Assembly: GCA_965208325.1 (NCBI GenBank)
Contig: OZ242326.1
Location: 4,544,001-4,608,000, forward strand
Source of the DNA: Candidatus Poribacteria bacterium
GTDB lineage: Bacteria; Poribacteria; WGA-4E; PCPOR2b
Length of the DNA stretch: 64,000 nucleotides
Reading direction: 5' to 3'
In this document: piece by piece, positions 214 to 22,600 of the stretch
How the letters are laid out: each line of letters starts with the position of its first letter
Position numbering within the stretch: position 1 is the first letter of the stretch
The notes under the pieces: generated by a model
Database searches by the model: none
Told to the model about the DNA's origin: nothing
What the model saw: the letters and a program-made list of their open reading frames with translations, nothing else
Made by a program: the position numbers and the translations under genes

Positions 214-1638
214 TTATGAATTTCCCGATAATTTGGTTTTAAGTTTTTCCACGGCATCTATCGCATCGGAAATTTCCTTTTTGACCAAAGGGACAATGTG
301 GGAATGGCTGAGCGGGTTAAGGATTATACTTCGGTACAGTTCGATGTCGTCAATGAGGGTTTGTTCTAAGAAGGGTGTACAATCGCTTGTACTTCCCTGT
401 TTTATTGGATCCCAGAAATCTTCACTTTGCAATTTTTTCGGATTGTCACTGTATGTTACTCGGAGTTTATTCGTTGCGCAGAATTTCTTGATAGCAGTTT
501 CAAAGGCGGTGCGCAGGTAGATTGCGCTGGCTTTGTAGTCGTTGTCGTCGAAATAGTCTTTCGCTTTCTCAAGATACGCTTTATCTTCTGCATAGACCGG
601 AATCTCGTATTCATCGGTTTTCGAGGTATAAAATTCGGCGTATTTCCATTTCGCATCGGGCGTCCGCTGTTTGGCAATCTCATACCACGTTTTATCATAG
701 GTCGTCAAAAAGATTTGGTGGTCTGGAAAATACTCGTTTAAGATATCAAGCACCGGCAGGCGGTTTGACGTATCCAAGCCGATTAACACATCGTCCAAGG
801 CGAGAATCTTCAGGCGGCTTTCCGGTTGAATCAGGATTGACGAGAAATAGATTGCGATAGCAATCGCCGATAACCTCGCCTCGTTGAGGAAGCGGTGATG
901 TTCGGGAATATTTTTATCAAAGAGCTCAATCGTTAACAGAATTTCCTGATTATCAAGCGTTTTGTTGTCACGGTTGTATTGAACGCCCGGAAAATCGAAG
1001 TTAAGGGCAACGTTGTGTCCAAACTTGCCAAGGATTTCAGATGCGATTGGCTGAAGTTCCGCTAATCTATTTGTTAATTCGGTATTGAAGGCTTCTGTCT
1101 GTTTTTCTAAATCTGAAATTTTGCCTGTAGCGTTTCGACGTGGATACGGCGGCTGAATTGCAGCCCAATCGTCGTCAAGGGTCCGATTCGTCAGGGTACT
1201 GACGGTGTTTGCCAAGAGCGTCTCAACCAGCAAATCGAACACATTAACTGTATCACTTTCACGATGGAGGTAGTGCGTGTCCAAAAGCGACTTATAATCG
1301 AGAAAACCCTTTGCCTTCGATGCCTCAATAATCAGTTCGTCGTCCGTTTCTCTAACGCTCTCCGACCATTCGTAGGTCTCCTGTTTTGACCAGCGATCAG
1401 CGCGGAGACACAGTTTTATATAGCCCGCATCCGTAGTAAAGATATTTTGATCGTTTTCAAATCTATGCGACGGATCATCGCCGGATTCCAAGAACAGTTT
1501 TAACGCAAAATACAGGGACGATTTTCCGCTCCCATTTTCACCGTAAACCAGCAAGTTCTTTCCTTTGTTGTGTAGGTTAATTCGGTATGTTCCGTAAAAG
1601 GCTTTGAAATTTTTGATTTCAATTTCGGTAATTCTCAC
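214..1638 (-). CDS. ABC/SMC-like ATPase with C-terminal PrrC/RloC-type HEPN (putative anticodon nuclease) domain
   Basis: Walker A GENGSGKSS; degenerate signature FLNEARL; Walker B/D-loop ILALDDVLIGLD; C-terminal RTAFE (RxxxE) and NPLSH (NxxSH) as in the PrrC/RloC HEPN domain. Start overlaps the upstream stop (ATGA, 1635-1638). Confidence 0.75.
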   Translation of the reverse strand: MRITEIEIKNFKAFYGTYRINLHNKGKNLLVYGENGSGKSSLYFALKLFLESGDDPSHRFENDQNIFTTDAGYIKLCLRADRWSKQETYEWSESVRETDDELIIEASKAKGFLDYKSLLDTHYLHRESDTVNVFDLLVETLLANTVSTLTNRTLDDDWAAIQPPYPRRNATGKISDLEKQTEAFNTELTNRLAELQPIASEILGKFGHNVALNFDFPGVQYNRDNKTLDNQEILLTIELFDKNIPEHHRFLNEARLSAIAIAIYFSSILIQPESRLKILALDDVLIGLDTSNRLPVLDILNEYFPDHQIFLTTYDKTWYEIAKQRTPDAKWKYAEFYTSKTDEYEIPVYAEDKAYLEKAKDYFDDNDYKASAIYLRTAFETAIKKFCATNKLRVTYSDNPKKLQSEDFWDPIKQGSTSDCTPFLEQTLIDDIELYRSIILNPLSHSHIVPLVKKEISDAIDAVEKLKTKLSGNS

Positions 1639-4600
1639 GCCTTATCCTCAATTATACGGATCGGTTCTACACTATCCAGAAAGAAAAGGTTGATCCGGAT
1701 CTGATGTGTTCTTTCATACAATCGCTCGAAGATTTCCTGTAACGATACCATTTTATCACCTCGAATTTCTTCAATCTCCGGCAACCCTTCGTCTAACAAT
1801 GGTTTGAAGAACTGTTTATCCCCGTGATGCAGTTCTTCACTCAGATAGGATTCATAAACCAGTCCGTCAACGATTCGTTCAAAATAGCCGAGCATTATGA
1901 AGTCGCGGGCGTGTGCCAAATCTTTGCCGCTCGTCGTCGGCTGTCCCTGAAGGTAAATGAGGTAATCGACAATTTTACCAATCAGTGATTTCTGCGTTGG
2001 TGTAAGATCGGGAACAGGGATTTCCTGCATATATCGGCTGCGCGCCCGAAGATAATCGCCAGTTAATTGATCTGACACTTGCGAATAGAACCACTCCACA
2101 ACACGGGAATTGAGGAGACCGCACAACCACGTCTCCTCAGTCGGGATAAGGTAGCATGTATCCCCGCAGAAAAGACCTTCCGTATCGACGGCGAAGGATT
2201 GACGGTCGTAGCTGTTTGGGCAAACCAACTTCGTTTGCGTAAAGCGTTCGGCGTCGCTTTTGGCGGCGGGTAATTCATACCATTTCTGTTTACCCGTTCT
2301 TTTGCTCAAGGGGGCTCTATATTTTTCCAAGTGTTTTCGGATGGCGGGATAACGGTCTATCTCTATGCGACGATAGGCAAAAATCAACCATGTATCCGGT
2401 TTTGCTACCCTCCAACGCCTGATATCCCGTCCGTGCAAAAACGGCTTCAAAACTTCAGTGGATGCAGGGTGCTCCGCAATGAGTCGATCTCGCGTCGCGC
2501 TATCTACGACAAAGGCTCCGCTGCTACCGGTCTTGATTCCGAAAGTAGGACGCGATTGGACGTATTGAGACAAAGGTGTGCCCGCGTTGCGTAGTTTCGC
2601 TAGGAGATTCAACACATCGGACGATTCAAGGGGCGTACCTTCGAAACTCGAGAATTTTTCCGTCTTTGGGAATCGACTCCGCCGCGGTTGCGACAGCATG
2701 TCAGCGATGTCCATCGGCAGATTCACACGATGTCTCTTCTCGAAGGCCTCAACGCTTTTGTAGTCGTTTTGGAATCCGGCGATGATATCCACACCGTTGT
2801 CTTTAGCAGTGTTCAAATCCTTGCGGGCATTTTCCCATTCTTTCAACCGTAACCACGCTTCACCGCGATTATAATAGGCGGCGACAAAAACCGGCTCCAA
2901 GTTTATCGCTTTGTTATAATTTTCAATGGCACGGTCAATCTCGCCTTTGCTATAGTAGGCTACTCCGCGATTGTTATAAACAATGGAAAGCCGCGGATTG
3001 AGTTCTATTACTTTGTTAAAGTCAACAATGGCACGGTCATGTTTGCCAATGGTGATATAGGCATTGCCCCGACCATTATAGGCTTCGACAAGATTCGGTT
3101 CGAGCTGTATCGCCTTGTCAAAGTCGGCGATGGCACGGACATAATCACCTTTGTTGCGGTATGCGGCACCGCGATTGCTATAAGGCTCGGCGTAATCGGG
3201 TTTGAGTTCTATCGCACGGTTACAGTCTACGATGGCAAGGTCAAAATCCCCCTTTCCCCGATAGACAGCACCGCGATTGTTGTAAGCTATGGCATAATCG
3301 GTTTTGAGTGCTATAGCCTGGTTAAAGTCTTTAAGGGCAAGGTTTACCTGATCTTTTTTGCCGTATGTGATACCACGACTGTTGTATGCCTCGGCAAAAT
3401 CTGGTTTCAGTTGTATTGCCACGTTAAAGTCTTCAACAGCACGGTTAAAATCACCCTGTTCGTCGTAGGCAATACCGCGATCGCTATATGCTATGGCAAA
3501 ATCGGGATTCAGCTCTATCGCTTTATTGAAGTCGTTGAGAGCAAATTGAACATTACCTTTGTTCTTAAAAGTAACGCCGCGATTGTAGTAGGCGTTCGCA
3601 TAACCGGGGTTGAGTTGAATTGCTTTATCAAAGTCTTTGATGGCACAATCGAAATCCTCTTTGTCATGGTAAGCCCCCCCACGATTATTATATAGCTCGG
3701 CGAGGTTTGGTTTCAATTGTATTGCCTTGTTAAAGTCTGTAATAGCACGATCATATTCCCCTTTTGCTTTATGAACATTACCACGACTATTGTAGGCGAT
3801 GGTACAATTAGGATTGAGTTCTATCGCCCTGTTAAAATCCTCAATAGCGTGGTCAATCGCACCTTTTTCATGAAAAGCATTTCCGCGATTGACATATTGA
3901 TCGGGAAACTTTGGACTCATTTTTATCGCTGTATCAAAATCTACGATAGCCCGGTCAAACTCGCGTTTCTTTTGGAAAGCAATACCGCGGTTGTTATAGA
4001 CATCAGCATGATTGCGTCCGCGTTGGATTGCCTTGTTAAAATCTGAGATGGCTCGGTTATAATCGCCTTTATTGTCGTAGGCAATGCCACGATTGTAAAA
4101 GGTTTCGGCATAATTGGGATTCACCTCTATTGCTCTGTTAAGGTCTTCGAGACCGCGGTCAAGTTCCCCTTTGTCAACGTAAGCAGCACCACGGTTGCTA
4201 TAGATAACCGCGTCATACGGGTTTATTGGTATCGCCGTGTTATAATCTTTAAAGGCGCGGTCAAAATTACCCAACTTTTGGTAAGCTACGCCGCGATTGT
4301 TGTAGGCATCGGTATCACGTGGATTGAGTTTAATTGCCTGTGAATAGGCTTCTATCGCCTTGTCTATTTCTCCGAACATCATGAAAACGTTGCCTTGTTG
4401 GAATGCCAATTCAGCAAGTAATTCATCGCCAAAAGCGCTGGAAGCTGAATCCGCGTGAGATAGCATTTTGTCGACGACTTTTCGGATACCCGTCACTACA
4501 TTTTGCCAACCTTTGCTCTGAGGCCTCCACTCGTTAATGGGCTTGACTTTGTGCGGCAGAACCTCAAACCGACTGAGTTGATGATGCTCCCAATCACAAG

Positions 4601-4892
4601 CCTCAAGGATGATAGAGATGACTCTTATGTTTGCGCGTAAGACGTCAGCTAATTCTTTATTACAGTTTTTCGACGCGAGACTCGCAGCGGAGGTAAGATA
4701 AAGTAAAATGTCCGATTCGGCAAGATTATCTGAAATATCTTTTTCCCACTCGTCGCCCGGAAGAATTTTGTTATCGTCCCACAACTCTATCTTGCCTTCA
4801 TCCGCCATTACAGCAAGGCGCGTTTGCAATTCGATGTTCTGCTGTAGGTCTTTATGTGAATATGTAATGAATACTTTTAGTGCGTTGTTCAT
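1635..4892 (-). CDS. TIR domain + about 16 TPR repeats + TaqI-like C-terminal target-recognition domain (chimeric protein)
   Basis: N-terminal TIR_2 motifs VFITYSHKD, WDDNKILPGDEW, CNKEL; 16 repeats of the A-Y-N-N-R-G type; C-terminal region aligns by eye with the methyltransferase TRD at about 7060-7730. Start placed at ATG 4892 because the ORF extension to 4952 runs through a repeat element. Confidence 0.85.
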   Translation of the reverse strand: MNNALKVFITYSHKDLQQNIELQTRLAVMADEGKIELWDDNKILPGDEWEKDISDNLAESDILLYLTSAASLASKNCNKELADVLRANIRVISIILEACDWEHHQLSRFEVLPHKVKPINEWRPQSKGWQNVVTGIRKVVDKMLSHADSASSAFGDELLAELAFQQGNVFMMFGEIDKAIEAYSQAIKLNPRDTDAYNNRGVAYQKLGNFDRAFKDYNTAIPINPYDAVIYSNRGAAYVDKGELDRGLEDLNRAIEVNPNYAETFYNRGIAYDNKGDYNRAISDFNKAIQRGRNHADVYNNRGIAFQKKREFDRAIVDFDTAIKMSPKFPDQYVNRGNAFHEKGAIDHAIEDFNRAIELNPNCTIAYNSRGNVHKAKGEYDRAITDFNKAIQLKPNLAELYNNRGGAYHDKEDFDCAIKDFDKAIQLNPGYANAYYNRGVTFKNKGNVQFALNDFNKAIELNPDFAIAYSDRGIAYDEQGDFNRAVEDFNVAIQLKPDFAEAYNSRGITYGKKDQVNLALKDFNQAIALKTDYAIAYNNRGAVYRGKGDFDLAIVDCNRAIELKPDYAEPYSNRGAAYRNKGDYVRAIADFDKAIQLEPNLVEAYNGRGNAYITIGKHDRAIVDFNKVIELNPRLSIVYNNRGVAYYSKGEIDRAIENYNKAINLEPVFVAAYYNRGEAWLRLKEWENARKDLNTAKDNGVDIIAGFQNDYKSVEAFEKRHRVNLPMDIADMLSQPRRSRFPKTEKFSSFEGTPLESSDVLNLLAKLRNAGTPLSQYVQSRPTFGIKTGSSGAFVVDSATRDRLIAEHPASTEVLKPFLHGRDIRRWRVAKPDTWLIFAYRRIEIDRYPAIRKHLEKYRAPLSKRTGKQKWYELPAAKSDAERFTQTKLVCPNSYDRQSFAVDTEGLFCGDTCYLIPTEETWLCGLLNSRVVEWFYSQVSDQLTGDYLRARSRYMQEIPVPDLTPTQKSLIGKIVDYLIYLQGQPTTSGKDLAHARDFIMLGYFERIVDGLVYESYLSEELHHGDKQFFKPLLDEGLPEIEEIRGDKMVSLQEIFERLYERTHQIRINLFFLDSVEPIRIIEDKA

Positions 4893-4902
4893 TTTCTTTT
4901 TT

Positions 4903-4977
4903 CTGTCTGAATCGCGGATTGAGGAAAAACACGGATTGAAGAATCCGCGCAATCCGTTTCATACGTGATTCAGACAG
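4903..4977. repeat. Palindromic element with terminal inverted repeat CTGTCTGAATCGCG...CGTGATTCAGACAG
   Basis: 13/14 terminal inverted-repeat match, with internal GGATT/AATCC repeats. Related copies at 6793-6893 and a half copy at 90-117. Confidence 0.85.
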
Positions 4978-5027
4978 TATTTTCCTCCTCAATCGCAATT
5001 ACCTCAGAGTCTGATGCCCGGCAAACT

Positions 5028-6752
5028 TTACACTCCCGGTGGCGAAAGCATTACGGCGATATCTTCCGGTAGTTCCACGTTATTCTTCTGCTCAAAATGC
5101 GCCACGCTTTCATAGTCTTTGCGAAACAAAGCGACAATATCCGCTCCCTTCTCTTTGCCAATTGACAGATCTTCTTTTGCGTTTTCAAATTCGCTCTGTT
5201 GTAACCAAAACACACCGCGACTGTAATACGCAGTAGTAAAGTTGAGTTCAATCGCCTTGTCATGATCTTTTATGGCTAAGTCATACCTTCCTGAATCTCC
5301 GTGAACTTTCGCGCGATAGTCGTAAGCTTCGGCAAGGTCCGGTTCAAGCCCTAACGCTCTGTCAAAGTCTTCAATGGCGTGATAATACTTGCCTTTTTTA
5401 GCATAAGCTATTCCTCGATTGTTGAAGGCATTAGCATAGTTGGGTTTCAGGTCTATCGCTTTAGTATAGTTCCCAATAGCACGATGTATCTTGCCTTTAC
5501 AAAGCCAAGCATTGCCACGATTGTTATAGGCCTCTGCATAATTTCCGTTCAGTTTTATCGCCGAATCATATTCTTGAATAGCCCGGCTATAATCACCTGT
5601 CGCGGCAAAAGAAACTCCGCGATTATTGAGGGCATTAGCATTATTAGGGTTAAGGTCTATTGCTTTGGTCAGGTCCTGGATAGCGCGGTCTATCCTGCCA
5701 TTGTGGAAGAACGCCTTGCCACGATTGATATAGGCGTCGGAATGGGATGGTTCAAGTCTTATCACGGAGTCATAGTCCCCTATAGCGGCGTCATAGTTGT
5801 TCTTACGACTATTTTCGCAGCCTCGATTGTAATAGGCATCAATATCTTTAGGATTCAGGTCTATTACTTTGGTATAGTCCTCAATAGCACGGTCAAAATC
5901 GCCTTCATCGCCGTAGGCACGTCCGCGATTGAAATAAGCGTCCGTAAAATCAGGTTTAACTCGGATTGCCTTTGTATAGTGTTCAATGGATTCGCCATAC
6001 TGACCTGAATGCTGACAGGCAACGCCTTTGAAAAACAGAGTGTATGCCCCTTCGTGTATTCCTTGATGGATAATATATCCATGTAGATCGTTGTAGATGG
6101 TTTCTTTGGAGATTCCGTGGTACCTTCGCAGATGCTGTAGGAGCGGATGTTTTAGTGTGGCCGGAATAAACACTATGTCCTTCTCATATGGATCAATAAA
6201 GCCCTTCGGTGGGCGAAGAAATACGCTTTTTTGGGCAATTACGCGGTGTCGTGGATTATTAGGATGTCTAATCATGTTTTTTATCGATTCGGTGTTTTGT
6301 ATGACAACTCGGCCCTCTTCCTGTGGAAATCCGTCGCATGCGAAGAAAAGAGCAATGAAATAGTCGGTTGTGAAGTCTATCAGGTTTGTGGCACCACCGT
6401 AATGTTGGATCTCCGTGAGAAGCTCAAAATTCGCGGCGTCTCTGGTAGATTCTTTGGACACATTCATAACTGCATTGAGATCTGATTGAATGTCCTGTGC
6501 TATATGCCCTAAATGCTTTTTGGCGCCATTCAGCATCTCGTTTTGGATTGCTTCTATATCGCAGTGTTTTGCCTCCTCGCGATACTTACGCCAGAGTGTT
6601 GAGGATACTTTTCCGTAGTAGGGATCGCCTTCATGCCGTTCAGGTTCTCCGCGGAATAAGTACGTACCGTCTACACATTTTTTCTCAATCACGTGGATAA
6701 CGTCCTGAACTGTTCGGAGTTTTTGATTTGCACCGTCGGATTGATTTGACAT
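5028..6752 (-). CDS. FRG domain + about 9 TPR repeats
   Basis: FRG motifs YLFRGE, QHYGGATNLIDFT, ALFFAC, RVIAQKSVF; 9 TPRs; GGAGG RBS upstream of the ATG. Confidence 0.88.
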   Translation of the reverse strand: MSNQSDGANQKLRTVQDVIHVIEKKCVDGTYLFRGEPERHEGDPYYGKVSSTLWRKYREEAKHCDIEAIQNEMLNGAKKHLGHIAQDIQSDLNAVMNVSKESTRDAANFELLTEIQHYGGATNLIDFTTDYFIALFFACDGFPQEEGRVVIQNTESIKNMIRHPNNPRHRVIAQKSVFLRPPKGFIDPYEKDIVFIPATLKHPLLQHLRRYHGISKETIYNDLHGYIIHQGIHEGAYTLFFKGVACQHSGQYGESIEHYTKAIRVKPDFTDAYFNRGRAYGDEGDFDRAIEDYTKVIDLNPKDIDAYYNRGCENSRKNNYDAAIGDYDSVIRLEPSHSDAYINRGKAFFHNGRIDRAIQDLTKAIDLNPNNANALNNRGVSFAATGDYSRAIQEYDSAIKLNGNYAEAYNNRGNAWLCKGKIHRAIGNYTKAIDLKPNYANAFNNRGIAYAKKGKYYHAIEDFDRALGLEPDLAEAYDYRAKVHGDSGRYDLAIKDHDKAIELNFTTAYYSRGVFWLQQSEFENAKEDLSIGKEKGADIVALFRKDYESVAHFEQKNNVELPEDIAVMLSPPGV

Positions 6753-6792: not shown

Positions 6793-6893
6793 TCTGAATC
6801 GCGAATTGCCTACACCTCAAAGGATTTCAACAGATATAATCCGCGCCACGAAGTTGGACTATCTTCAATGTGCGTAATCCGTGATTCAGACAG
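6793..6893. repeat. Palindromic element TCTGAATCGCGAATT...AATCCGTGATTCAGA overlapping the methyltransferase stop codon
   Basis: 13/15 inverted-repeat match; same family as 4903-4977. Confidence 0.8.
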
Positions 6894-9800
6894 TATTTTT
6901 CTCCACGACCGCAATTTCTTCATCAGATAAATCGTACAATGAGTATACTATCTGATCAATCTCATTTTCAAGTTCGGATACATCGGCGTCCGGGTCAGCG
7001 CGTTTGGCAGCGAGGATTTGATTGACTATGTTGGTGATGGACGCTTTTTGCGCTGGTTTGATAGAGGGAATAGGAATCTGAGAAACATATTGAGCAATAA
7101 ATCTCACAAAGCCACCCCGAATCTGCGTGCTTGTCTTTGTATAGAACCAAAACACGGTTTTGCTATTGAGCAAACCTAGAAGCCACATTTCCTTAGTCGG
7201 TAGAAGGTACAACGTGTTACCCAAAAAATAACAGTCATCATCGAAGGCAAATTCGGCTCCTTGTGCGATATCAGGGTAGACAATTTTCGTTTTCTCAAAC
7301 TCTTTCCAATAAGCACACGCTCGCAACTCCCAGAAATACTTCCCCTGATCGTACCGCTCAATGAGTCGGTCTCGAAAGGTTTGTAGGCGGGCGTGGATTG
7401 CGGGATACGTATCGGCAAAAATCGCCTCCGCCTCTACGGCAGATTCCTCCGACCACGGATGCGTCCGATTTTCCGACGATTCAATTTTGATGAGGTACTG
7501 CTCGGCGAAATTCACACCCCAGCGTTTCACATCTCGTCCGCGCAATAACGGTTTTAACACTTCAGCCGATGATGGATGATCCGCAATGAGTTGATTCCGC
7601 GTCGCTAGGTCCACAACAAATGCTTCGTTCAAACCTGTTAGGACACCTCGATAAAACCTTCCTTTGACATATTCCCCTAACGGTTTACCCGTGTTTCGGA
7701 GTTTCTTCAGCAGGTCTAACATTATTGGGGTGGTGAGCCGCCAACCGTCAGCGGTCAAGGCGTTTTGCGGCATGGTGAACCCCCGTGTTCGAAACACCGT
7801 CCCGAATTCGTCAATAGAGGACCCCGGCTCCCAATTCAGGGCGCGGAGATGATTCCCTTGAGCGTGGGGTTTGGACGCTGTGATAATACTTGGATAAGCA
7901 ATTGACGTAAAAACGGGGGCATCACCAAAGTCGATGAGTTGAGATACAGTGGATTTACAGGCGAGGAAATCTCGAAGTTTCTTACCGTATGCAGCTCGGA
8001 AATACTTATTGGACGAGATGTAGGTCAGGACTCCATTATCCGGCAGTAATTGAAAACCGCGTTCATAAAAATAGACGTAGAGATCGGCTGTGCCGGTGTA
8101 ACAGTCGTACTGCGTTTTCAACGTCGGCTTGAGATCTTTAATTTTCTCTTGGCGAACATACGGCGGATTGCCAATCACCACATCAAACCCTTCGGCGATA
8201 CCAAACATCCATTCTGGGTCAAACCAATCTGCTTCTTTATTCTGATCGTAGGGCTTCCAACTTGCGATTTTGCTGGCGTCTTGAAAACTGGAATCAAATT
8301 GGTTCTTACGCGCCTTATACTTTTTTCGTTCCTCCTTTAGTAACTGTTGGCGATGTTCAGTTTTCGGAAGTTGTGCGACTTTTCGGTCTATTTCTCGTTT
8401 CTGACGCTCCATCCATGATGCTCTCCGGCTGTCCAGTTCTTCTTGCAACCGTTCGCGACTTTCGTCCTCCAGCTCTTCGAGGTGAAGCTTCTGTCGTCGA
8501 TTATTTGTTAGATAATACTTTTCACGAATTCCCTCTATTTCTTTTATTAATTGCCGTACAGCGTCCTCTTGGAGTAACAATCGGGTTTCGGCTAACTGCA
8601 AGCCAATCAGCGTATTCGCGGCAACGAAGCGAGTTTCTAGATTCGGCAGGGGCTTAATTCCGAAATTGGCAACGGTCTCATCTACGACCTGTTCAATAGC
8701 AAGCGAGACAAAGAATCGGAGTTTGGCGATCTGGCACGCCTCAGGTTGGATGTCGACGCCGAAGATGCTGTTTTGTATCAGATACAACTTCCGTCCAAAG
8801 TCTGAATCGCGGTAACGTTCAAACGTATCACTAATTTCCTTCAGTTCGTCATCGCGCGCCTGCTGGTTTGAGATTTTGAACGCCGCCTGCGCCCGACGCC
8901 CGGCGCGGTCGCGCTGTAACTGTTCCCAAAGCGTGTTATCCGGATCAAGCCGCCGCAGCGCAAGGGTCAATTTGTGCAGCACACCCATCGGAAACGCGCC
9001 GGAACCGACCGCAGGATCCAGTATCTTCAGATTTGAAATCGCCCGTACAAGCCCGTTTATCTCATCGTCATCAAACCATTCGCTCGCATCGTCGCAGACT
9101 TGGGCATAATCCAACAGATAGTGCAATCGTTCATTCCAGAGTTTCACATCATCGTCCGTTGGCGACACTTGTTCTCCCAGCGTTGCAATTAACGCTTCCT
9201 CTACCATGTAGTCTACAATAGGACGCGGGGTGTAGTAGGAACCAGTCTGTTTACGTTTAGTTTCCCCAGTTTCAGGATTGTATGCGGCAAGCAGGTTTTC
9301 GAACACCTTGCCGAGCAGTTCAGGATCCAGCGCAACCTCCTGCTCTATCGGCGTGCTTTCCTCAACGGTAAACTTGTAGTGCGTCAGCAAGGAAATCAGA
9401 CCATCGTCACCAAAGAACAGACGGTTGGGAAGGCTAAGTTTTCTGAAATGCTCATCGGAAAAACAGTCAATGCGGGAACCTCCCGCTCTCATGCCCTTGA
9501 AGTCGTCCAGACAATCGAACAACCCTCCGTTGATGAATGGTGTTTTGCCAAACAACGCTTCAAGCGAATCCGGGTCATTCATCTGATCTTTGTAGCGATA
9601 TACGGAGAAATTTCGATGGTCGGGTTTCCCTTTACTGAACCGACGCTCGTCAATCTCGGTGTTCAACGTGGCAAAGAACAAGTTCTGTAATACCGCACGG
9701 TAGTAGGAATCTCCATTGTCACGATTGTAGTCCTTTAGCAAGAGAGTAACTTCGCGTTCGTCGAATAGTTCCTCCGCAACCAACCCCTTCTCTTTAATAA

Positions 9801-10605
9801 ACCAGACGAAAAGCAGACGCGTGATTAAGCGGATGACGTGCTGCTCCGTTTTCAGATTTCGTTTTTCGTTCTCCGGGAATCTTGATTCACAAACTGCCAA
9901 TTTAAACCAATTGAACAGCTTAAGGTAGAACTCCCTGTTAAGTGCTTCGGTGTCCAACGTAATTTTCCACGCCTCATGGAGTTCTTCAAAATTCGAGAAC
10001 TGGCGTGTACGGTGTAGTTCCGAAATCGAGAGATCGAACAAGATGTTGATGTGGGCGCGGTGGGGTTTAGCGAAATCAATATCTTTAATGAGCGTCACTT
10101 TTTCAAGGACATCTTTGGATACGTTGCGCTTGTGCAACCGTCGGTCGATTACGGCGAGGGTGAGCGTTTCGCCGTACTGGAATAGGACCATTGCGGGTAT
10201 CATGAGCAGTCTGTTGATTTCGCGCACGATGTCCGATAGTTGGGTGCGGGTGTAGCCGCGATTTTGTAGTTTTAGGGCGAAAAAGAGGTAGGATTCATAG
10301 CGATTTTGGTCGAAAGCGTTGCGTTCGAATCCCAACGTGGTTTGAGCGCTCTGGACGATTTCCTCCTCCGTCAGTTGGAAGAGGAGGTCTATGGATTCCC
10401 ATTCATTCAACAACCCCCGCTCCCGGTTCAACGTGTTATGTGAATCGAAGTGATTAATGAATCCGTCGGCGGTGTTGGGTTCAAGGTCAATCCGTCGTTC
10501 GCTGTGATAACCGAGGACGGTGAGAAGGTTTCGGGCGTTGTCGTCGAGGTTACCGTCGGCGAAGTGTTGTAGGGCTGTTTTGATGTTTTCTTTGGATGTG
10601 GTCAT
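6886..10605 (-). CDS. Type IIG/Eco57I-like N6-adenine DNA methyltransferase with TaqI-like C-terminal TRD
   Basis: LGKVFE, GSYYTP, motif I ILDPAVGSGAF, GVDI, motif IV IGNPPY (gamma-class order); C-terminal TRD (KPLLRGRDVKRW, KIVYPDI, LLGLLNS). Confidence 0.92.
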   Translation of the reverse strand: MTTSKENIKTALQHFADGNLDDNARNLLTVLGYHSERRIDLEPNTADGFINHFDSHNTLNRERGLLNEWESIDLLFQLTEEEIVQSAQTTLGFERNAFDQNRYESYLFFALKLQNRGYTRTQLSDIVREINRLLMIPAMVLFQYGETLTLAVIDRRLHKRNVSKDVLEKVTLIKDIDFAKPHRAHINILFDLSISELHRTRQFSNFEELHEAWKITLDTEALNREFYLKLFNWFKLAVCESRFPENEKRNLKTEQHVIRLITRLLFVWFIKEKGLVAEELFDEREVTLLLKDYNRDNGDSYYRAVLQNLFFATLNTEIDERRFSKGKPDHRNFSVYRYKDQMNDPDSLEALFGKTPFINGGLFDCLDDFKGMRAGGSRIDCFSDEHFRKLSLPNRLFFGDDGLISLLTHYKFTVEESTPIEQEVALDPELLGKVFENLLAAYNPETGETKRKQTGSYYTPRPIVDYMVEEALIATLGEQVSPTDDDVKLWNERLHYLLDYAQVCDDASEWFDDDEINGLVRAISNLKILDPAVGSGAFPMGVLHKLTLALRRLDPDNTLWEQLQRDRAGRRAQAAFKISNQQARDDELKEISDTFERYRDSDFGRKLYLIQNSIFGVDIQPEACQIAKLRFFVSLAIEQVVDETVANFGIKPLPNLETRFVAANTLIGLQLAETRLLLQEDAVRQLIKEIEGIREKYYLTNNRRQKLHLEELEDESRERLQEELDSRRASWMERQKREIDRKVAQLPKTEHRQQLLKEERKKYKARKNQFDSSFQDASKIASWKPYDQNKEADWFDPEWMFGIAEGFDVVIGNPPYVRQEKIKDLKPTLKTQYDCYTGTADLYVYFYERGFQLLPDNGVLTYISSNKYFRAAYGKKLRDFLACKSTVSQLIDFGDAPVFTSIAYPSIITASKPHAQGNHLRALNWEPGSSIDEFGTVFRTRGFTMPQNALTADGWRLTTPIMLDLLKKLRNTGKPLGEYVKGRFYRGVLTGLNEAFVVDLATRNQLIADHPSSAEVLKPLLRGRDVKRWGVNFAEQYLIKIESSENRTHPWSEESAVEAEAIFADTYPAIHARLQTFRDRLIERYDQGKYFWELRACAYWKEFEKTKIVYPDIAQGAEFAFDDDCYFLGNTLYLLPTKEMWLLGLLNSKTVFWFYTKTSTQIRGGFVRFIAQYVSQIPIPSIKPAQKASITNIVNQILAAKRADPDADVSELENEIDQIVYSLYDLSDEEIAVVEKNTV

Positions 10606-11192: not shown

Positions 11193-12473
11193 TCACCTCG
11201 TGTCGAGATGGGTGGTGTACCAGAGGCTGCCTGTTGGAATCCCTTCTGAAGAATGGTTGCTTACGGCGGGATGGTCGCTGGCGCGACGGATTGTGGAGTA
11301 GCCGTCCTCGCCCTTGTCTAGGATCCAGACCTCGTTCGGCTCCAACAGATCGACAAAATACGGCTGGTGCGTCGTGATGAAGACTTGCGATCCGCCTCTG
11401 CGCCCGGTGACGTATTCACGGAACTGTTTGGCGAGCGACTCCAAGAGTTTGTGGTACAAACCGTTTTCGGGTTCTTCGATACAGAGGAACGGGGGCGGCG
11501 CCGGGTCTTTTAGCAGCAGCAGGTATGCGAATAGTTTTAGTGTTCCGTCGGACATCTGCTGGGCGTAAAACGGCGCGCGAAAGCCTTTGTCGTTGAACCT
11601 GAGGAGCAGACGCCCGTCACTGGTTCTTTCCGTGTCGATCTGATCTACGCCCGGGATCTTGTCGGCGATCTCTTTGAGAATCGCGCCGAATCGGCGCGGA
11701 TGTTCGCGTTCCATGAATTGGACGACGTTGCCGAGGTTATCGCCGTGGATGTTGAGATGCTGCTGGGGACCGGCGCGCGGCAGGCTGCGCGCCGCGTCCG
11801 GCGTGAAGTAGCTGAGATACCAGCCTTCAATGAATTGCCGGAAAGCCGAGATTCGCGGGTGTTGTTTCAGGGCGCCGAGCGTGGCGATGCCGAGTTTGCT
11901 CCGATCTTCCAATTCGATGATTTCGGTCTGGCTGGATTCGTCCGCAATAATCAGCTTGATGAGTTCCGGGAAATCGAGTTGCTCCATCTTTTCGTCAATC
12001 TGATGACCCGCCTGTTTGCCCTTCCACGCCACGCCTTTGCCGCCGTTCAGGAACAAGAACGAGAATGGGCGGCCGTATTTCTGGCCTTTGCGCCTCTGTC
12101 TGAGGCGCTCTTTCAAGACAAACGGGCGTCCGGTCTCCTCTACGGCGATGGCGATTTCGTAAGTCATGGGCCGGGCGTTTCCGTGCTCTCTATAGTACAC
12201 CTCAAACTCGATGGGATCGGACTCGCCTTGTGTACGGATTTGCTCGAACCCGCCGCGTCCGCGCGTACCGCACGCCTCCTCAACGCCGGTCTTTAGGGCG
12301 TCAGCGAGGAAACCGAACGCATCGAAAAGCGCGCTTTTGCCGACGCCGTTCTTGCCGATGACTGCGGTCATGAGCGTGAGCGGTTGTATTTCCCGTTGGT
12401 TCCAAAGGCGCCCCAATGTCACATCTTTGAGTACCTTGAAGTTTTTTACTCTGAAGCCTTCGATTTTTGCCAT
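11193..12473 (-). CDS. AAA_21/AbiEii-like ABC-type ATPase
   Basis: Walker A GKNGVGKS, signature MSDGT, Walker B LCIEEPENGL, H-loop ITTH. Confidence 0.85.
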   Translation of the reverse strand: MAKIEGFRVKNFKVLKDVTLGRLWNQREIQPLTLMTAVIGKNGVGKSALFDAFGFLADALKTGVEEACGTRGRGGFEQIRTQGESDPIEFEVYYREHGNARPMTYEIAIAVEETGRPFVLKERLRQRRKGQKYGRPFSFLFLNGGKGVAWKGKQAGHQIDEKMEQLDFPELIKLIIADESSQTEIIELEDRSKLGIATLGALKQHPRISAFRQFIEGWYLSYFTPDAARSLPRAGPQQHLNIHGDNLGNVVQFMEREHPRRFGAILKEIADKIPGVDQIDTERTSDGRLLLRFNDKGFRAPFYAQQMSDGTLKLFAYLLLLKDPAPPPFLCIEEPENGLYHKLLESLAKQFREYVTGRRGGSQVFITTHQPYFVDLLEPNEVWILDKGEDGYSTIRRASDHPAVSNHSSEGIPTGSLWYTTHLDTR

Positions 12474-12520
12474 GATACTGTGTTGGTTGGCAGAACGCGA
12501 TCGGTTCCGCGGCTACAAAA

Positions 12521-13522
12521 CTACGCTGATGCCATCCGCGCCATTATCTTATCTGCTAATTCTTTGAAATCACGACGGGCGGCATTTGCCGCAACGGCAT
12601 GGCTTCCGATAGCTCCGTCAGCGGGAGTGAGGTGAAAGATGGGCTTTCGCGCTTCCTGCGCCATTGGCACCAAGCTCCGGTAGTGCTTAACAGTGGCGAG
12701 GGCATTTGCTTTATCCTGTTCCGGCGTCTGAGGGTAAGGTCCGTCGTTGTCATCGAGCAGATTTCGTGCATATTCCTCCGGCATGCGGTTGACCCATTTG
12801 TCATACGCCTTAACAGGCCGCCCCAAGCGGACGCTGTGCTGCTGTACCACATAGCCAATTGGTTGAATTAATCCGCTAGGTATAGGTAGGTCAGAGATAG
12901 GGTTGCGGTCGTATCTATCCAACCACCCATTGCGCCAATCGTGCAGCGTTGGACCGAGGTTCCGCAACCCTTGAAGCGAGAATAGATCTGCTCCAAGTGG
13001 AACGATAACGTAATCTGTCGCCACTAGCACTGCCCTATTCAAAGCGCCTAAATTAGGGCCGACATCTACTAAAACAATCTCGACCTGATTACTTTCCGCC
13101 GCGTTTTGCAAAATGCGCCATAGCGCCGAAATTACCCGGAAAGCACGAGGGCGCCTATCAAGGCACTCTGGCCATTGGCTGGAAAGTTCATCTTCTGTGG
13201 CTGATAAAGCGAGGTCCCCCACGATGAGACTCAATTGCGGCGTAAAAATCTCCAGATGAGGATTTTCAATGTCGCCAGTTCCGTCTAAAAGCGGTTCAAG
13301 TGCACTATAGATGGATTTTCGGGGCCCATTGTCGGGCCAGAGTATTTCTAGTTGGTCTTCATTGATAAACATGCTCGTTAGGTTTGCCTGCGGGTCGAGA
13401 TCACAGGCAAGGACGCGGTGACCGATGTCGGAAAGCATCCACGCTAGATGATAAACTAACGACGTTTTGCCAACACCGCCTTTGTTGTTAAAGAATGTTA
13501 AAACTGGAACCGGCATTGTCAT
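12521..13522 (-). CDS. ParA/Soj-family ATPase (AAA_31)
   Basis: Deviant Walker A NNKGGVGKTS, DLDPQANLT, VLVDVGPNLG. Start overlaps the upstream stop (ATGA). Confidence 0.9.
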   Translation of the reverse strand: MTMPVPVLTFFNNKGGVGKTSLVYHLAWMLSDIGHRVLACDLDPQANLTSMFINEDQLEILWPDNGPRKSIYSALEPLLDGTGDIENPHLEIFTPQLSLIVGDLALSATEDELSSQWPECLDRRPRAFRVISALWRILQNAAESNQVEIVLVDVGPNLGALNRAVLVATDYVIVPLGADLFSLQGLRNLGPTLHDWRNGWLDRYDRNPISDLPIPSGLIQPIGYVVQQHSVRLGRPVKAYDKWVNRMPEEYARNLLDDNDGPYPQTPEQDKANALATVKHYRSLVPMAQEARKPIFHLTPADGAIGSHAVAANAARRDFKELADKIMARMASA

Positions 13523-14742
13523 GTCCTCACAGGATTTCTGGCGATTTTAATTGTAGTTAGCACGTAACTGCCATTTACCTTAAATTCGGGTTCCGGGTGT
13601 CCGGCTGCTTTGAGCGACATTCTAGCAATCGGTATTCCCATGCCGTACCGCTGCACAAAACCGAGGTTTTTCATGGCTTCCGCTAAATTGGGGTTACGAT
13701 AGTCGGTAAGACCGGGGTGACCGAAATTCTCGGTGGTCACAGCCCCGAAGGCGCCGCCAGGGCTCAACACCTCAATGCGGTCATTGAACCACGACACACG
13801 AATCGGCGCATTGGTTGCTTCGTAGCTCCTATGCATCACCGCATTCCGAGTAATCTGTTGCACCGCCATCATGGGATAAAGCGATGTTCGTTGTTCGACG
13901 TTACTCGTCGTAATATCGACAGCGATGCGGTTGTGCGCGTTTAGTTTATCGTCGAGACGGCGAAGAAGGTCCGGAATTGCGCCGCGAATCTCCTCACTGT
14001 CAACTATATCGTCGGTTAGCTCGCCGCCATCAATTTTGAGGAACTGGACGTAAGCGCCGGGAAGAAAATCTTGTGTATTCTTACCAAGCACCAGGATTCC
14101 GAGCACTGTTGCGATTCGTCCATCGCCTGGAGCGATCATTTTAGTTGCAGCCAATCGTTCCTCAGGAGTGCGTTCATTGGCTTCCAATATTTCCGTAGGG
14201 ACAACCTGCGGCAGATATTCATTCTCGAACTGCGCAAGGTTTAGGTCAGAGATGCCGGCTGTGGGGATAGGATTTATGTCGAAGGGGATATCTCCATATC
14301 GCCGCTTTTCGTTGAGAATGCTTTCCTCCTGCGCTGTCGCGATGCCGCGGCGCGGACCAATACGGATATGGATAACACCCTTGTACCGAACCGGCGGCGA
14401 GTTAGATGGTTGCACCGTGACCAATGCAATTTGCCTTCCGCCCAGCACACACTTTTCAACGGTTAGTGAAGGCGGCGGTACGATATTCCCGTCGGTTTTC
14501 ATATCAGCCAATTGGCGGAGCAATTCGTTCGTGACAGTTAACCCCGCGATAGATTTGTCGTTCCGTACCCCGACGAAAACAAAGCCTGGTTTTTCGCGGC
14601 GCGGCAAATCGTTGGCAAATGCACAGATGGCTTCCCTGATTTCTTTCGGGGCACTGCCGGATAGTGCCTCTTTGAACTCAACTCGGTCGGCTTCATCGTC
14701 TTCTATAATTTGCAGCAGTTCCTTATCTGTAAGATTCGGCAT
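13519..14742 (-). CDS. Schlafen/AlbA_2 domain + RecG-C-like HATPase_c_4 domain protein
   Basis: N-terminal EADRVEFKE and ICAFAN..G..FVGV (AlbA_2); C-terminal NAVMHRSY, DRIEVLSPG, RNPNLA, G.V.RYG.GI. Start at ATG 14742 preferred over GTG 14754. Confidence 0.85.
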   Translation of the reverse strand: MPNLTDKELLQIIEDDEADRVEFKEALSGSAPKEIREAICAFANDLPRREKPGFVFVGVRNDKSIAGLTVTNELLRQLADMKTDGNIVPPPSLTVEKCVLGGRQIALVTVQPSNSPPVRYKGVIHIRIGPRRGIATAQEESILNEKRRYGDIPFDINPIPTAGISDLNLAQFENEYLPQVVPTEILEANERTPEERLAATKMIAPGDGRIATVLGILVLGKNTQDFLPGAYVQFLKIDGGELTDDIVDSEEIRGAIPDLLRRLDDKLNAHNRIAVDITTSNVEQRTSLYPMMAVQQITRNAVMHRSYEATNAPIRVSWFNDRIEVLSPGGAFGAVTTENFGHPGLTDYRNPNLAEAMKNLGFVQRYGMGIPIARMSLKAAGHPEPEFKVNGSYVLTTIKIARNPVRT

Positions 14743-14882
14743 ATCAATTCCCACTCATTCTAAATCAAGGTTACCGACTGTGCTTTCCACTACAACCCGG
14801 TATGTGATGCCATGAATATTTTCCTATTGATGACTTTTTTGGTTGATTATGCTCGAATTGACCGTTGAATCTTGGAAATTCG

Positions 14883-19659: not shown

Positions 19660-22600
19660 TTACACGTTACGTGCGCTTTCCCGCAACTGCTCGATTTTTT
19701 CTCGCACCTCATCAACAAAGGCTCTATAGACTTCATGATTGATTGCCGCGCCGTCCTCAGAAGCACGGAGGGTCATTGGCTCACCGAAAACCACCTTAAT
19801 TTGCTTCCTGCGCGGCAAGTTTTTGCCTTTGGGCAGCGCTTGGTATGCGCCGTCAATATATGTTGGGACAACCGGCGCCCCGGTTTCGTAGGCGAGCAAT
19901 CCCAGCCCGGCTTTGAATGGTTGGAGTTCGCCTGTGACTGATCGTGTACCTTCCGGATAGATGAGTAAGCAGCGGTTTTCAAGCATAATTTCGTGGGAAG
20001 TCCGTACATCCTGCAGAAACTGCGAAAAATTGTCTTTCCGTTCGAAAGGCAGAAACTTAAAAAGTTTGCCAAAGAACCATGCTTTGAAGCGGGTATTGAA
20101 GAAGTAGTCGCGTGCGGCTAGAATTTTGATGCCCCTCGCTGATTTACCGAGCGCAGTAACTACGGCGCCGGTATCAAGGTGACTTGTGTGGTTAGCGACA
20201 AAGATGCACGGTTGACCGTCCGGGATGTGCGATTTACCGTAAGTTTTGATGGAGAAATACCCGTGATAGGCGATTCGCATGCCGAGCCGCAAAAGGCGTG
20301 TTTTGATTGATAAGTGCGGCAGACCTATGTCAGCATAGGCCGGCGGTTCAGCGCGGGCAGAAATCGTCACGCTGCTCTCAACCTTGTGAATTGCAGGTTG
20401 GGCTTGCAGCGATTTGACGGATTGAATTACGTCGCCGACGGTGCGAATCTGCATGACCATCTCGTCAGGTATGGGATGTTGAATTTTGGCTTCCAGCAAT
20501 AGCAACAGTTCAACTCGCGCAAGCGAATCCAATCCGAGATCGGCGTCCAAGTGATCTTCCAAACGTATCTTTTCTAGCGGCATACGCGACAAACGGCTCA
20601 ATTCAGCAGCAATGGCACCCTCCCAACCGCCAGAAATCCAATCCGGTTGCGCTGAGGAAGTCGACTCATCAGAGGCGTCGTCGGCGCTCTCTCCCGTTGA
20701 AATATCGTCCTGTGTCACGCCAGACAGCCGATCCAATAGCATCTCTTTAACGCGCCGGCGGTGAATCTCAAAGGTTGGTAGTTTGGGCAGTTCCGATTCC
20801 CAAAAATGTAATTTGTGAAGATGTTGATAGCTGGGGAGATCGCGCGCGCAGTTTTGAAGATGTTGGCGAATTTTAGCTTCAACCTCCGCCGGATTGGGTT
20901 TACCCCTTCGATTGGGAACAATGACAGCGTGAACTTCTTCCCCGTGCGAATCGCCGATGTTCACACCGACAACACAGATTTCTGCGATGTCCGGGCTGTG
21001 TTGATACAGCTCTTCAAGTTCGACTGGATATATGTTTTTTCCCGCGCTCGATACGATGACATCCTTGAGACGTCCGGTGATATAGAGATAACCATCAGCA
21101 TCAATGTACCCGAGATCCCCTGTATGCAAGGTTCCACTCCGCATCATGTGTTCGGTCGCCCCCGGGTTCCGGTAGTAACCTGCCATTAGGCTAGGACCTT
21201 GCGCTACAATTTCGCCAATCCCGTCCGGGTTTGGATGATGGATTTGAATTTGTGTGCCTTGTACGGGAACGCCGACAGCCGCCCGCTTACTTTTGTGATG
21301 AGGATTCACGGTAAGCACGGGCGCGGTTTCGGTCAACCCGTAGCCCTGATAAATTGTTAACCCGAAACGCTGGTATGCGTCATAAATTTCGTTGGACAAC
21401 GCCGCACCGCCGCTCACTAGGACACGCATGTTACCACCTAACGCGGCGTGCAACGCTTCAATCGCCGATCGGTCAGGCGGAGCATCTTCCGCAGCGGCAG
21501 ATTTCAACACGTAGCGCATGATAGTGTCATAAATTAACTTAAACATTCGCGGCACGCCTATGACGACAGTTGTCTGTGTTGCCTGCATGGTTTCTAGAAC
21601 AACGGTCGGTTTGAGCGTGTTGGGATAAGTGACCGTGGCACCGCCGTAAATTGACATCAGAAAACAGCAGGTAAACTCCAGCGCGTGATGCAATGGCAAT
21701 ATCGACAAGAACTGGTCTGTATCGCGGGGCGGCAACGCTTGTGCAACAGCGTGGACGTTAGCAATGAAATTCTTGTGGGAGAGCATTACCCCTTTCGCCT
21801 CGACCGTGGTGCCCGCAGTGAAGATTATTGAGGCGATTGTGTCGGGTTGTATATCCACTTTGGGGAAGCCGTTGGTTGGATCGGACACATCACTCTCTTC
21901 GATTGAATCAGATTGGGATTCCAGCGTATGGCCGAACTCTAATGGTTCACAGAAACGATAGATGTTTAAGAGGTCTACCGTAAGTGTGCCGTCGTCGGAC
22001 TGAATTAGTGCACGGTGCAAATGCACAGCCAGCGAATCCGAGGTTAGAATGGCTTTCGCCTCGGTAAACTTGGCGAGTGCAAAGATTTCACGCTCCGAGG
22101 TTTGCCGGTCGACTGGAACAACTGTGATGCCGATGTGTATGGCACCCAAATAAGCGATAGCCCATTCCGGGCAGTTCTCAGCAAAGAGGATGAGGCGGTC
22201 GCCTGAGCGGTAGCCTCGATTCCAGAGGGAACAAGCGATTCGCCGGGAAATGTCATAGAGTTGGCTGTAGGAATACCGTACCCAATTGTCACCGGATTTC
22301 ATCTGAAGCGCCGTTTTATTCGGATGGGATTTGACACGTTCGGCAATCAGGTCTGGAATGGTACGATAAGGCAATTGTGAACTGCCGCCAGCTTCGTCAC
22401 CTCGGATGCTGTCCCCCTCTTCACTTTGTTCAGGTACGGGTTTTTGTCCTTTGCCGCTTTCGAGTTTGAGGATGTGACGCTTGATGCCGGGAATATGAAC
22501 CTCCTGGAGATAATGCCTCCAGTCAAAACGTAAGACATCAAAGTTGAACCGCCGTTGGTCGGACGGATCGAGAGAACGATACAACGCTTCAGTTTTGCCG

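Follow-up and report, generated by a model that had tools for sequence, protein, structure and literature searches.

PrrC is an ATP-binding cassette (ABC) NTPase joined to a HEPN anticodon nuclease, in which an Arg320-Glu324-His356 triad is needed for anticodon cleavage, as described in PMC1484252. It lies within a Type Ic restriction-modification (RM) locus, where it stays latent under EcoprrI and is freed when T4 Stp inhibits EcoprrI (PMC3710099, bioRxiv 2024.01.29.577857), and ABC-HEPN genes in RM operons have been described in general terms (PMC3710099). The PARIS system, which consists of the ABC ATPase AriA and the nuclease AriB, is a second-line defence triggered by anti-restriction proteins such as Ocr (PMC12839542, bioRxiv 2024.01.29.577857), and a pairing of TIR and TPR with anti-phage activity has been reported as BcTir/Tpr (bioRxiv 10.1101/2023.05.26.542521). 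Here we analysed a 64,000 nt stretch of a Candidatus Poribacteria bacterium (GenBank assembly GCA_965208325.1, contig OZ242326.1, positions 4,544,001 to 4,608,000 of the forward strand; hereafter the window), in which a single gene encodes a TIR domain, a TPR array and a TaqI_C-type target-recognition domain (TRD), and is directly followed by an ABC-ATPase gene. The two belong to a row of four genes on the minus strand in the first 11 kb of the window, in the order methyltransferase, FRG-TPR protein, TIR fusion and ABC-ATPase, with the following features.

1635..4892, minus strand: gene for the TIR-TPR-TRD-tail protein, 1085 aa, with its stop codon at 1635-1637 and its ATG at 4890-4892 (translation of the open reading frame (ORF), Pfam)
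4566..4874, minus strand: TIR domain, residues 7-109, with Glu80 in CNKEL (Pfam TIR_2, PADLOC ThsB1-type TIR)
2793..4415, minus strand: TPR array of about 16 repeats, residues ~160-700 (Pfam TPR_1, 15 stretches, E 3.4e-143)
2682..2792, minus strand: TPR end cap, residues ~701-737, ending in NDYKSVEAFEKRHRVNLPMDIADMLSQP and common to the FRG-TPR neighbour (BLASTP)
1956..2642, minus strand: TaqI_C-type TRD, residues 751-979 (BLASTP, Pfam, profile matches to solved TRDs)
1638..1955, minus strand: helical, family-specific tail of 106 aa, residues 980-1085 (alignment and a tail hidden Markov model (HMM))
214..1638, minus strand: ABC-ATPase with a predicted HEPN-fold C-terminal domain (C-domain), 474 aa (Pfam SMC_N, AAA_23, AAA_15)
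217..627, minus strand: the HEPN-fold C-domain of the ATPase, residues 338-474 (79-sequence alignment, AlphaFold2 (AF2) model, fold searches)
5028..6752, minus strand: FRG-TPR protein, 574 aa, ending at the TPR cap (Pfam FRG 8.1e-12 plus TPRs; PADLOC PDC-S15)
6886..10605, minus strand: Eco57I-family (Type IIG-like) methyltransferase, 1239 aa (Pfam Eco57I 1e-42, TaqI_C 8e-20; PADLOC REase_MTase_IIG 2.3e-115)
6889-7755, minus strand: the neighbouring methyltransferase's own TRD, with a short tail only (Pfam TaqI_C)

The conserved partner of the fusion gene is the coupled ABC-ATPase and not the methyltransferase, and the family-specific tail goes with the ATPase. On present evidence this ATPase is PrrC-like: an ABC-type NTPase is again joined to a C-terminal domain, of predicted HEPN fold, with conserved Arg, Glu and His, and the ATPase gene is again linked to the gene of an RM-derived protein. 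The locus differs from PrrC/EcoprrI in that the partner is an Eco57I-type TRD plus tail instead of hsdMSR, which sets it apart from a Type Ic locus, in that this Poribacteria partner is no longer an RM enzyme and carries a TIR effector of its own, and in the spacing of the conserved residues, the two being likened by architecture, fold and residue pattern. PARIS shares the pairing of an ABC ATPase with a nuclease, whereas here the effector would be a fused HEPN fold and not Toprim, and the partner is a TRD+tail protein. With the Eco57I and Type IIG methyltransferases (M.BseCI, 7qw5; CamA, 7lni) the fusion protein shares a homologous TRD (residues 751-979), but it has no methyltransferase or nuclease domain, its TRD is conserved and a 106-aa tail is added. 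The likeness to Thoeris ThsB lies in the TIR, which matches PADLOC ThsB1 (E 2.9e-22) and keeps the glutamate, and both ThsB and BcTir/Tpr differ from the present protein, in which TIR and TPRs stand in one chain with an RM-derived C-terminus and the head is dispensable in many relatives. In other phyla a methyltransferase and ATPase module agrees with the present one in TRD+tail, ATPase and gene order, and its two genes often overlap, except that its TRD+tail ends a full methyltransferase where a TIR-TPR body is found here. Full-text literature searches returned neither a single protein with TIR, TPRs and TaqI_C nor a description of an RM TRD as a decoy.

A first-pass annotation of this DNA had proposed that a TIR-16xTPR protein is joined in frame to an RM TRD, and Pfam and BLASTP searches confirmed a real fusion at a domain boundary. 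All three families that it expected (TIR_2, TPR and TaqI_C) were matched in the 1085-aa protein, with TIR_2 (PF13676) at residues 7-109 (E 1.3e-12, 48.7 bits against a cut-off of 28), the sensor-type TPR family TPR-S at 33.5 bits against a cut-off of 27.6, and TaqI_C at residues 816-960 (E 6.7e-15, 55.8 bits against a cut-off of 26.5). The glutamate of the TIR was retained as predicted, being Glu80 in CNKEL (S-x-N-C-N-K-E-L), and 95 of the 96 distinct TIR sequences of the same type have it; from plant and bacterial TIR work we take this residue to be catalytic for NADase activity. The proposed parallel between the C-terminus and the neighbouring methyltransferase was also found (residues 751-979 against 953-1198, 40% identity, E 2e-51), with the sequence strings quoted by the annotation reproduced by BLASTP, and the TRD profile matched the solved methyltransferase TRDs of M.BseCI (8.9e-20) and CamA (1.3e-15). 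Pfam detected no Eco57I, N6_Mtase or MmeI_Mtase match and no nuclease domain in the 1085 aa, and no NTPase domain in the segment that links TIR and TPRs, where receptors of the STAND (signal transduction ATPases with numerous domains)/NLR (nucleotide-binding leucine-rich repeat) type have a STAND NTPase in the same chain. In NCBIfam the fusion protein matched only TPR look-alikes and its neighbours only, and weakly, BREX PglX or RecF, all far under the cut-offs.

The description of the C-terminus as a TRD held only in part, since a TaqI_C TRD is present but is not bare, being followed by the 106-aa tail (residues 980-1085). When TRD+tail was aligned to methyltransferase TRDs, the tail of the neighbouring methyltransferase was found to be short (~40 aa). 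Pfam gave no meaningful match for the tail alone, and an AF2 model of TRD+tail built from 27 sequences had a mean predicted local distance difference test score (pLDDT) of 61.5, with residues 41-135 below 50, and was too poor for a fold search. The FRG-TPR neighbour does stop at the cap as had been noted, aligning through it to ...DIAVMLSPP and ending two residues later, at the point where the fusion continues. Misassembly, raised by the same annotation as a way in which the fusion might prove false, was not borne out by the reads: short-read (Logan) contigs of four runs, from two samples of one study that is possibly the source of the assembly, cover 2343/2355/2422/2527..2991 and therefore bridge the cap-to-TRD junction at ~2612-2708, with 0 differences, and the same junction is present in independent assemblies.

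The fusion is widespread. A search with residues 745-1085 returned 2364 proteins at E <= 1e-5, and the best 120 of these 2364 (the window's own included) all combine TPRs with TaqI_C, are 79-86% identical in this part and measure 601-1156 aa, so that at least 119 other 90%-identity clusters bear the same C-terminal module and a unique fusion can be dismissed. The genome of the window, a single contig of 4.71 Mb, has one copy of the module. Of 41 genomes of the same order, 19 have one full-length match each, with identities of ~80% for the family of the window and 52-65% for two further families, and the fusion was kept across several families of the order. Neutral evolution did not apply either, as purifying selection was seen in both TRD+tail (dN/dS 0.12-0.30) and TIR (0.20-0.39). 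The fusion is thus neither unique nor an assembly artefact nor neutral. Sequencing runs labelled as sponge metagenome contain small shares of the sampled words of the gene, the DNA runs with large shares all belong to one study, which may be the source of the assembly, and no RNA runs were among those listed. Between the window (module at 1638-2660) and loci L013-L023 of another genus the synonymous divergence was only 0.50-0.69, which seems low for this rank, and the locus may move between sponge symbionts. One TPR-type locus (L056) carries a Latescibacterota label.

The stop codon of the fusion gene overlaps the GTG start codon of the ATPase gene as GTGA, with GAGGA upstream. An ATPase orthologue is located directly downstream in 16 of 19 related loci, two of the 16 being split, one cut short and one fused through a deletion. 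The sole unbiased test of this linkage, a whole-genome ATPase search in the 41 genomes of the order, which are however kin, gave 17 ATPase loci, and at every one of them a full-length TRD+tail match ends at most 3 nt from the ATPase start or overlaps it. Beyond these 17 loci ATPase homologues were not detected, and no ATPase directly followed any of 57 other TRD matches lacking the tail part. An ATPase without a TRD+tail gene was never found in the 41 genomes, whereas the fusion gene occurs in genomes without any ATPase (G011, G013 and G017) or with a broken one (split in G003 and G040, with a TAA in G028, fused in G035); that the ATPase is never alone and the fusion sometimes is supports restraint of a harmful partner. 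In G035 (L031, 11813-14161) a deletion joins the first 156 TRD residues to the ATPase from residue 236 onwards in a 782-aa frame, which reads as TIR-TPR-half TRD-half ATPase and forms a natural knockout of both partners.

In public sources the ATPase goes by no other name than 'AAA family ATPase'. A Rad50/SMC-like ABC NTPase forms its head (SMC_N 1.9e-12, AAA_23, AAA_15), with Walker A and B motifs as in the PrrC type, GENGSGKS and LALDDV being invariant in the alignment, and a PDB sequence search with the ATPase profile gave only weak matches to Rad50/SMC heads (best E 1.1e-4). Identification as Lamassu LmuB, MADS mad3, Gabija GajA or PARIS AriA was rejected, as the PADLOC matches were weak and mostly covered the P-loop only (for AriA, residues 3-64, E 1.2e-8). 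In an alignment of 79 C-domains, R376, E380, N441 and H445 (R39, E43, N104 and H108 in domain numbering) are invariant and form the pattern R-x3-E...N-x3-H, with R376-x3-E380 and H445 having the same composition as Arg320, Glu324 and His356 of PrrC. The AF2 model of the C-domain is confident and all-helical (pLDDT 82.1, predicted template modelling score 0.78), and Foldseek gave a HEPN protein or HEPN-containing Csm6 in each of its ten best rows (top row 1o3u, E 0.02, TMq 0.64). VIA-align, which is independent of Foldseek, placed HEPN proteins in 9 of the 10 best positions (Z 12.7-9.7), with 2hsb at Z 12.7 and a root-mean-square deviation of 3.0 A over 118 residues. From these results taken together we accept a HEPN fold for the C-domain, which is a predicted latent RNase.

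The same ATPase occurs far outside Poribacteria. A search with the ATPase alignment, using one genome per species, gave 79 loci (L032-L110) from Poribacteria, Latescibacterota, Cyanobacteriota, Thermodesulfobacteriota, Bacteroidota, Chloroflexota, Deinococcota, Acidobacteriota, Chlorobiota, Planctomycetota and others. These and the 19 related loci together contain 92 ATPase ORFs whose N-terminus is intact, and for 73 of them the tail HMM showed that the gene immediately upstream ends in the tail. The count includes some genomes fetched twice, and it is restricted by contig ends and by the fact that the HMM was derived from Poribacteria sequences alone. Pfam analysis of 27 upstream proteins identified 21 full Eco57I + TaqI_C methyltransferases (1128-1385 aa), two stand-alone TRD+tail proteins (Nostoc and Desulfonema), one Z1-domain protein with the tail only and three Poribacteria TPR forms. 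The tail, which these differing proteins share, is thus the element that accompanies the ATPase, whatever bears it. The stand-alone protein of Desulfonema has a separate short-tailed methyltransferase upstream, a layout like that in the window. The Z1-domain protein (1284 aa; L068, 3139-6993, from a Fluviicola metagenome-assembled genome) has a match to the tail part of the HMM only (residues 1200-1278) and is followed by the ATPase, which suggests that the tail is a portable coupling element. Locus L062 (Desulfobacterales HSG2) contains two TRD+tail/ATPase modules in tandem, one upstream gene being a 448-aa ORF that runs off the end of the locus and the other a 1226-aa methyltransferase, and both of its ATPases measure ~595 aa, with ~120 extra C-terminal residues.

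A tree of 76 distinct modules, made by quick IQ-TREE maximum likelihood with a midpoint root and with the long branches flagged (L030 solo_short, L108 and L110), places all 43 TPR-type modules in one clade (SH-aLRT 99) nested among methyltransferase-borne modules. The sister group of this clade contains one methyltransferase with a long tail, from Trueperaceae, and three with a short tail, among them that of the window. Since the TPR-type modules form a single clade, the TPR fusion appears to have arisen once, and on this quick tree the methyltransferase part was replaced a single time in Poribacteria by TPRs with swappable heads, with stand-alone modules apparently arising separately in cyanobacteria and Desulfobacterales. 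The heads are indeed diverse: the 120 listed clusters comprise 80 with the TIR type of the window, 6 with a second TIR type, 1 with FRG and 33 with a short leader or no head, FRG heads are also found in loci L029 and L067, and HNH_5-like heads, below the Pfam cut-off, in L040 and L047. Protein lengths across the loci range from 547 to 1650 aa, and TIR-TPR or FRG-TPR genes without the module are often located just upstream of the fusion gene in related loci. Overall, a constant C-terminal module is combined with a TPR array of variable length and with exchanged heads, and the heads were probably exchanged by recombination among neighbouring TPR genes.

The first-pass annotation had read the protein as a sensor of the sequence or methylation state of DNA, and a sensor reading the same state as the adjacent methyltransferase can be judged from eight genomes in which both occur. 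Between these genomes the fused TRDs are 78-91% identical (mean 83) and the TRDs of the adjacent methyltransferases 20-93% (mean 36), without any correlation of the two distance sets (r = 0.18), and a fused TRD is 32% identical to the TRD of its own neighbour and 33% to the methyltransferase TRDs found in the other genomes. Nine of 19 loci have a same-family methyltransferase upstream, and in the other 10 neither an intact nor a split one was present within ~10-13 kb upstream. Because the fused TRD does not co-vary with the neighbouring methyltransferase TRD, a DNA sensor of matched specificity, serving a cognate methylase, appears unlikely. The protein is not a Type IIG enzyme either, because it is without a methyltransferase domain and its TRD is conserved, whereas that of Type IIG enzymes is strain-variable. 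The TRD part in the window is basic (isoelectric point (pI) 9.1, net charge +6) and the alignment shows that it keeps the G-x-x-T-G...F motif of DNA-binding TRDs. In clades further away the TRD is acidic to neutral, with pI values of 5.4-6.1 (L027, L028, L026 and L029). Two loci have a methyltransferase broken up into two ORFs, each at a different point (L017, 6840-10641; L025, 4238-7768), which could reflect frameshift, phase variation or decay.

We propose that the locus is a guarded module of PrrC-like design, in which the RM-derived TRD+tail docks or regulates the ATPase-RNase, with the TIR as a further effector, and we assign this reading a probability of roughly 45%. The fusion gene and the translationally coupled ABC-ATPase would then be two halves of one defence module, the TRD+tail being derived, as the tree suggests, from the widespread Eco57I-type methyltransferases that precede the same ATPase family. 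The tail, together with the TRD, would dock and restrain the ATPase-RNase in the way that Type Ic EcoprrI restrains PrrC, and the TRD and TPR surfaces would serve to detect a factor of the phage, most probably one directed at RM enzymes. Once these surfaces are disturbed, the RNase would be set free, the TIR NADase would become active and infection would be aborted. Binding of tail and ATPase, restraint of the RNase, the trigger and both the NADase and RNase activities are what we infer here. A more specific version, in which the TRD is an integrated decoy like those in plant TIR-NLR receptors and copies the RM part attacked by phage anti-restriction proteins such as DNA mimics, is a rather doubtful suggestion; the first-pass annotation had also thought of a decoy for such proteins, and by analogy this fits the PrrC-like context.

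Several observations weigh against the guarded module. The fusion gene persists in three genomes without the ATPase, and the TIR-TPR-TRD protein may work alone; the basic TRD with its retained G-x-x-T-G...F motif leaves room for plain DNA binding; and the AF2 model of TRD+tail is poor (pLDDT 61.5). The share of 73/92 is biased towards linkage, since L032-L110 were found via the ATPase. For the C-domain, the E-values of the ten best Foldseek rows (0.02-0.2) all exceed 0.001, helical bundles can by the aligner's own note reach Z ~12 by chance, and Pfam stayed below threshold (HEPN E 0.062, DUF4145 E 0.025). The likeness to PrrC is one of fold and pattern, with E and H spaced 60 residues apart here and 31 in PrrC.

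Plain DNA binding would be given a role if the TRD, recognising a fixed motif or DNA ends or structures, and the Rad50/SMC-like ATPase detected invading DNA as one complex, in which the TPRs oligomerise, the TIR or HEPN domain fires and the tail merely holds both proteins together. The homology of the TRD to the DNA-binding TRDs of M.BseCI and CamA, its basic character, the retention of motifs conserved in methyltransferase TRDs and the resemblance of the ATPase to Rad50/SMC heads all point in this direction, and conservation at 78-91% would suit one fixed ligand. We nevertheless consider it unlikely: without a matching methylase a sequence-specific TRD would find its site in host DNA, the fused TRD does not track that of the neighbouring methyltransferase (r = 0.18; 32% against 33%), 10 of 19 loci are without an intact or split methyltransferase in the ~10-13 kb upstream, and the TRDs of distant clades, at pI 5.4-6.1, are not basic. 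Conservation of the whole TRD, ~83% identical with a dN/dS of ~0.17, also bears on an NLR-like sensor split over two genes, in which the TPRs sense a phage protein, the ABC ATPase acts in trans as nucleotide switch, the effector function falls to the head (TIR, FRG or HNH), and the TRD, having lost any ligand, remains as a structural adaptor to the ATPase. TPR number and heads do vary on a constant C-terminal module, as is typical of sensor/effector shuffling, and the TPR-S score lies above its cut-off, but the TRD, and not the tail alone, is conserved beyond the needs of an inert adaptor, headless forms are common (33/120), and stand-alone TRD+tail proteins without TPRs adjoin the ATPase in L049, L061 and L063, which together make such a receptor improbable.

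A role tied to the RM enzyme next door, as an extra specificity or regulatory subunit altering where or when the methyltransferase acts, could draw on the 9 of 19 loci with a same-family methyltransferase upstream and on the position of the window's methyltransferase TRD in the sister clade of the TPR-type modules in the quick tree. That methyltransferase, however, owns a complete TRD, co-variation is absent among the eight genomes, and the enzyme is missing from the upstream flank of 10 of 19 loci whereas linkage to the ATPase is near constant, so that we regard this role as very unlikely. Finally, the frequent rearrangement of the defence islands in these genomes, with split methyltransferases in L017 and L025 and broken ATPases, might favour a functionless remnant, either a fusion that arose by chance or a Type IIG gene fragment in decay, but this is hardly credible for a frame that is intact over 1085 aa, is borne by at least 119 other clusters, has a single origin with retention across several families of the order and evolves at a dN/dS of 0.12-0.30.

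The ORF of the fusion gene extends to 1635..4952(-) when a TTG start is counted, but because relatives begin at the ATG-equivalent position in the alignment, the ATG at 4892 is the likely start and the longer TTG start at 4952 was dropped. The 135-nt spacer ahead of the TIR gene (4893-5027) contains nested inverted repeats, ctgtctgaatc...gattcagacag around acggattg...caatccgt, with a T run after the inner repeat, and may represent either a terminator or some small repeat element. A promoter and terminator scan of the region gave site counts at chance level (20 vs 15.3; 12 vs 13.4). This spacer and the region upstream of the methyltransferase, where three more genes of defence-island type are located (11193-14754, minus strand), include the following features.

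4929..4950, minus strand: terminator-like hairpin with T run between the FRG-TPR and TIR genes (consensus scan; a hint only)
11193-12473, minus strand: AAA_21 ATPase
12521-13522, minus strand: ParA-like AAA_31 ATPase
13519-14754, minus strand: Schlafen AlbA_2 + HATPase_c_4 protein

Orthologues are found 5′ of the methyltransferase elsewhere, with both the ParA-like and the Schlafen gene in L018 and the ParA-like gene only in L020, and Schlafen-kinase-winged helix-turn-helix genes are mentioned as frequent companions of BREX-like systems in PMC12839542. Further along (19660-24057, minus strand), a 1465-aa multidomain protein combines NAD_binding_4/Sterile (fatty-acyl reductase-like), AMP-binding, PP-binding carrier and acyltransferase domains, and is probably an enzyme of a lipid or wax-ester type pathway that is unrelated to the fusion gene.

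The locus shows an RM target-recognition domain reused outside a methyltransferase as a conserved module of an immune protein, and the likely reason for this reuse is that the TRD comes with a tail that accompanies a PrrC-like ATPase-RNase. It also draws attention to a widespread, apparently unnamed module of a long-tailed Eco57I-type methyltransferase and an ABC-HEPN ATPase in at least 10 phyla, which could be the Type IIG counterpart of PrrC-EcoprrI second-line defence, although the ATPase family may already figure in the published classification of ABC ATPases or in the supplementary lists of PMC3710099. The Poribacteria forms constitute a natural series that varies in the head (TIR, FRG, HNH-like or none), in the number of TPRs (6 to more than 25) and in the presence of the ATPase, which separates the parts and makes the guard/decoy idea directly testable. 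For sponge symbionts, a lineage-specific, vertically kept defence gene is added to their known wealth of TPR proteins and RM systems. If the more doubtful decoy version is true, the methyltransferase and ATPase module of many phyla would be an unrecognised PrrC-like guard of Type IIG enzymes, with the Poribacteria form as its bait-only descendant, in which a TPR scaffold connects a decoy TRD with two effectors, the TIR NADase and the latent ABC-HEPN RNase, and a phage that disarms restriction would trip an abortive response.

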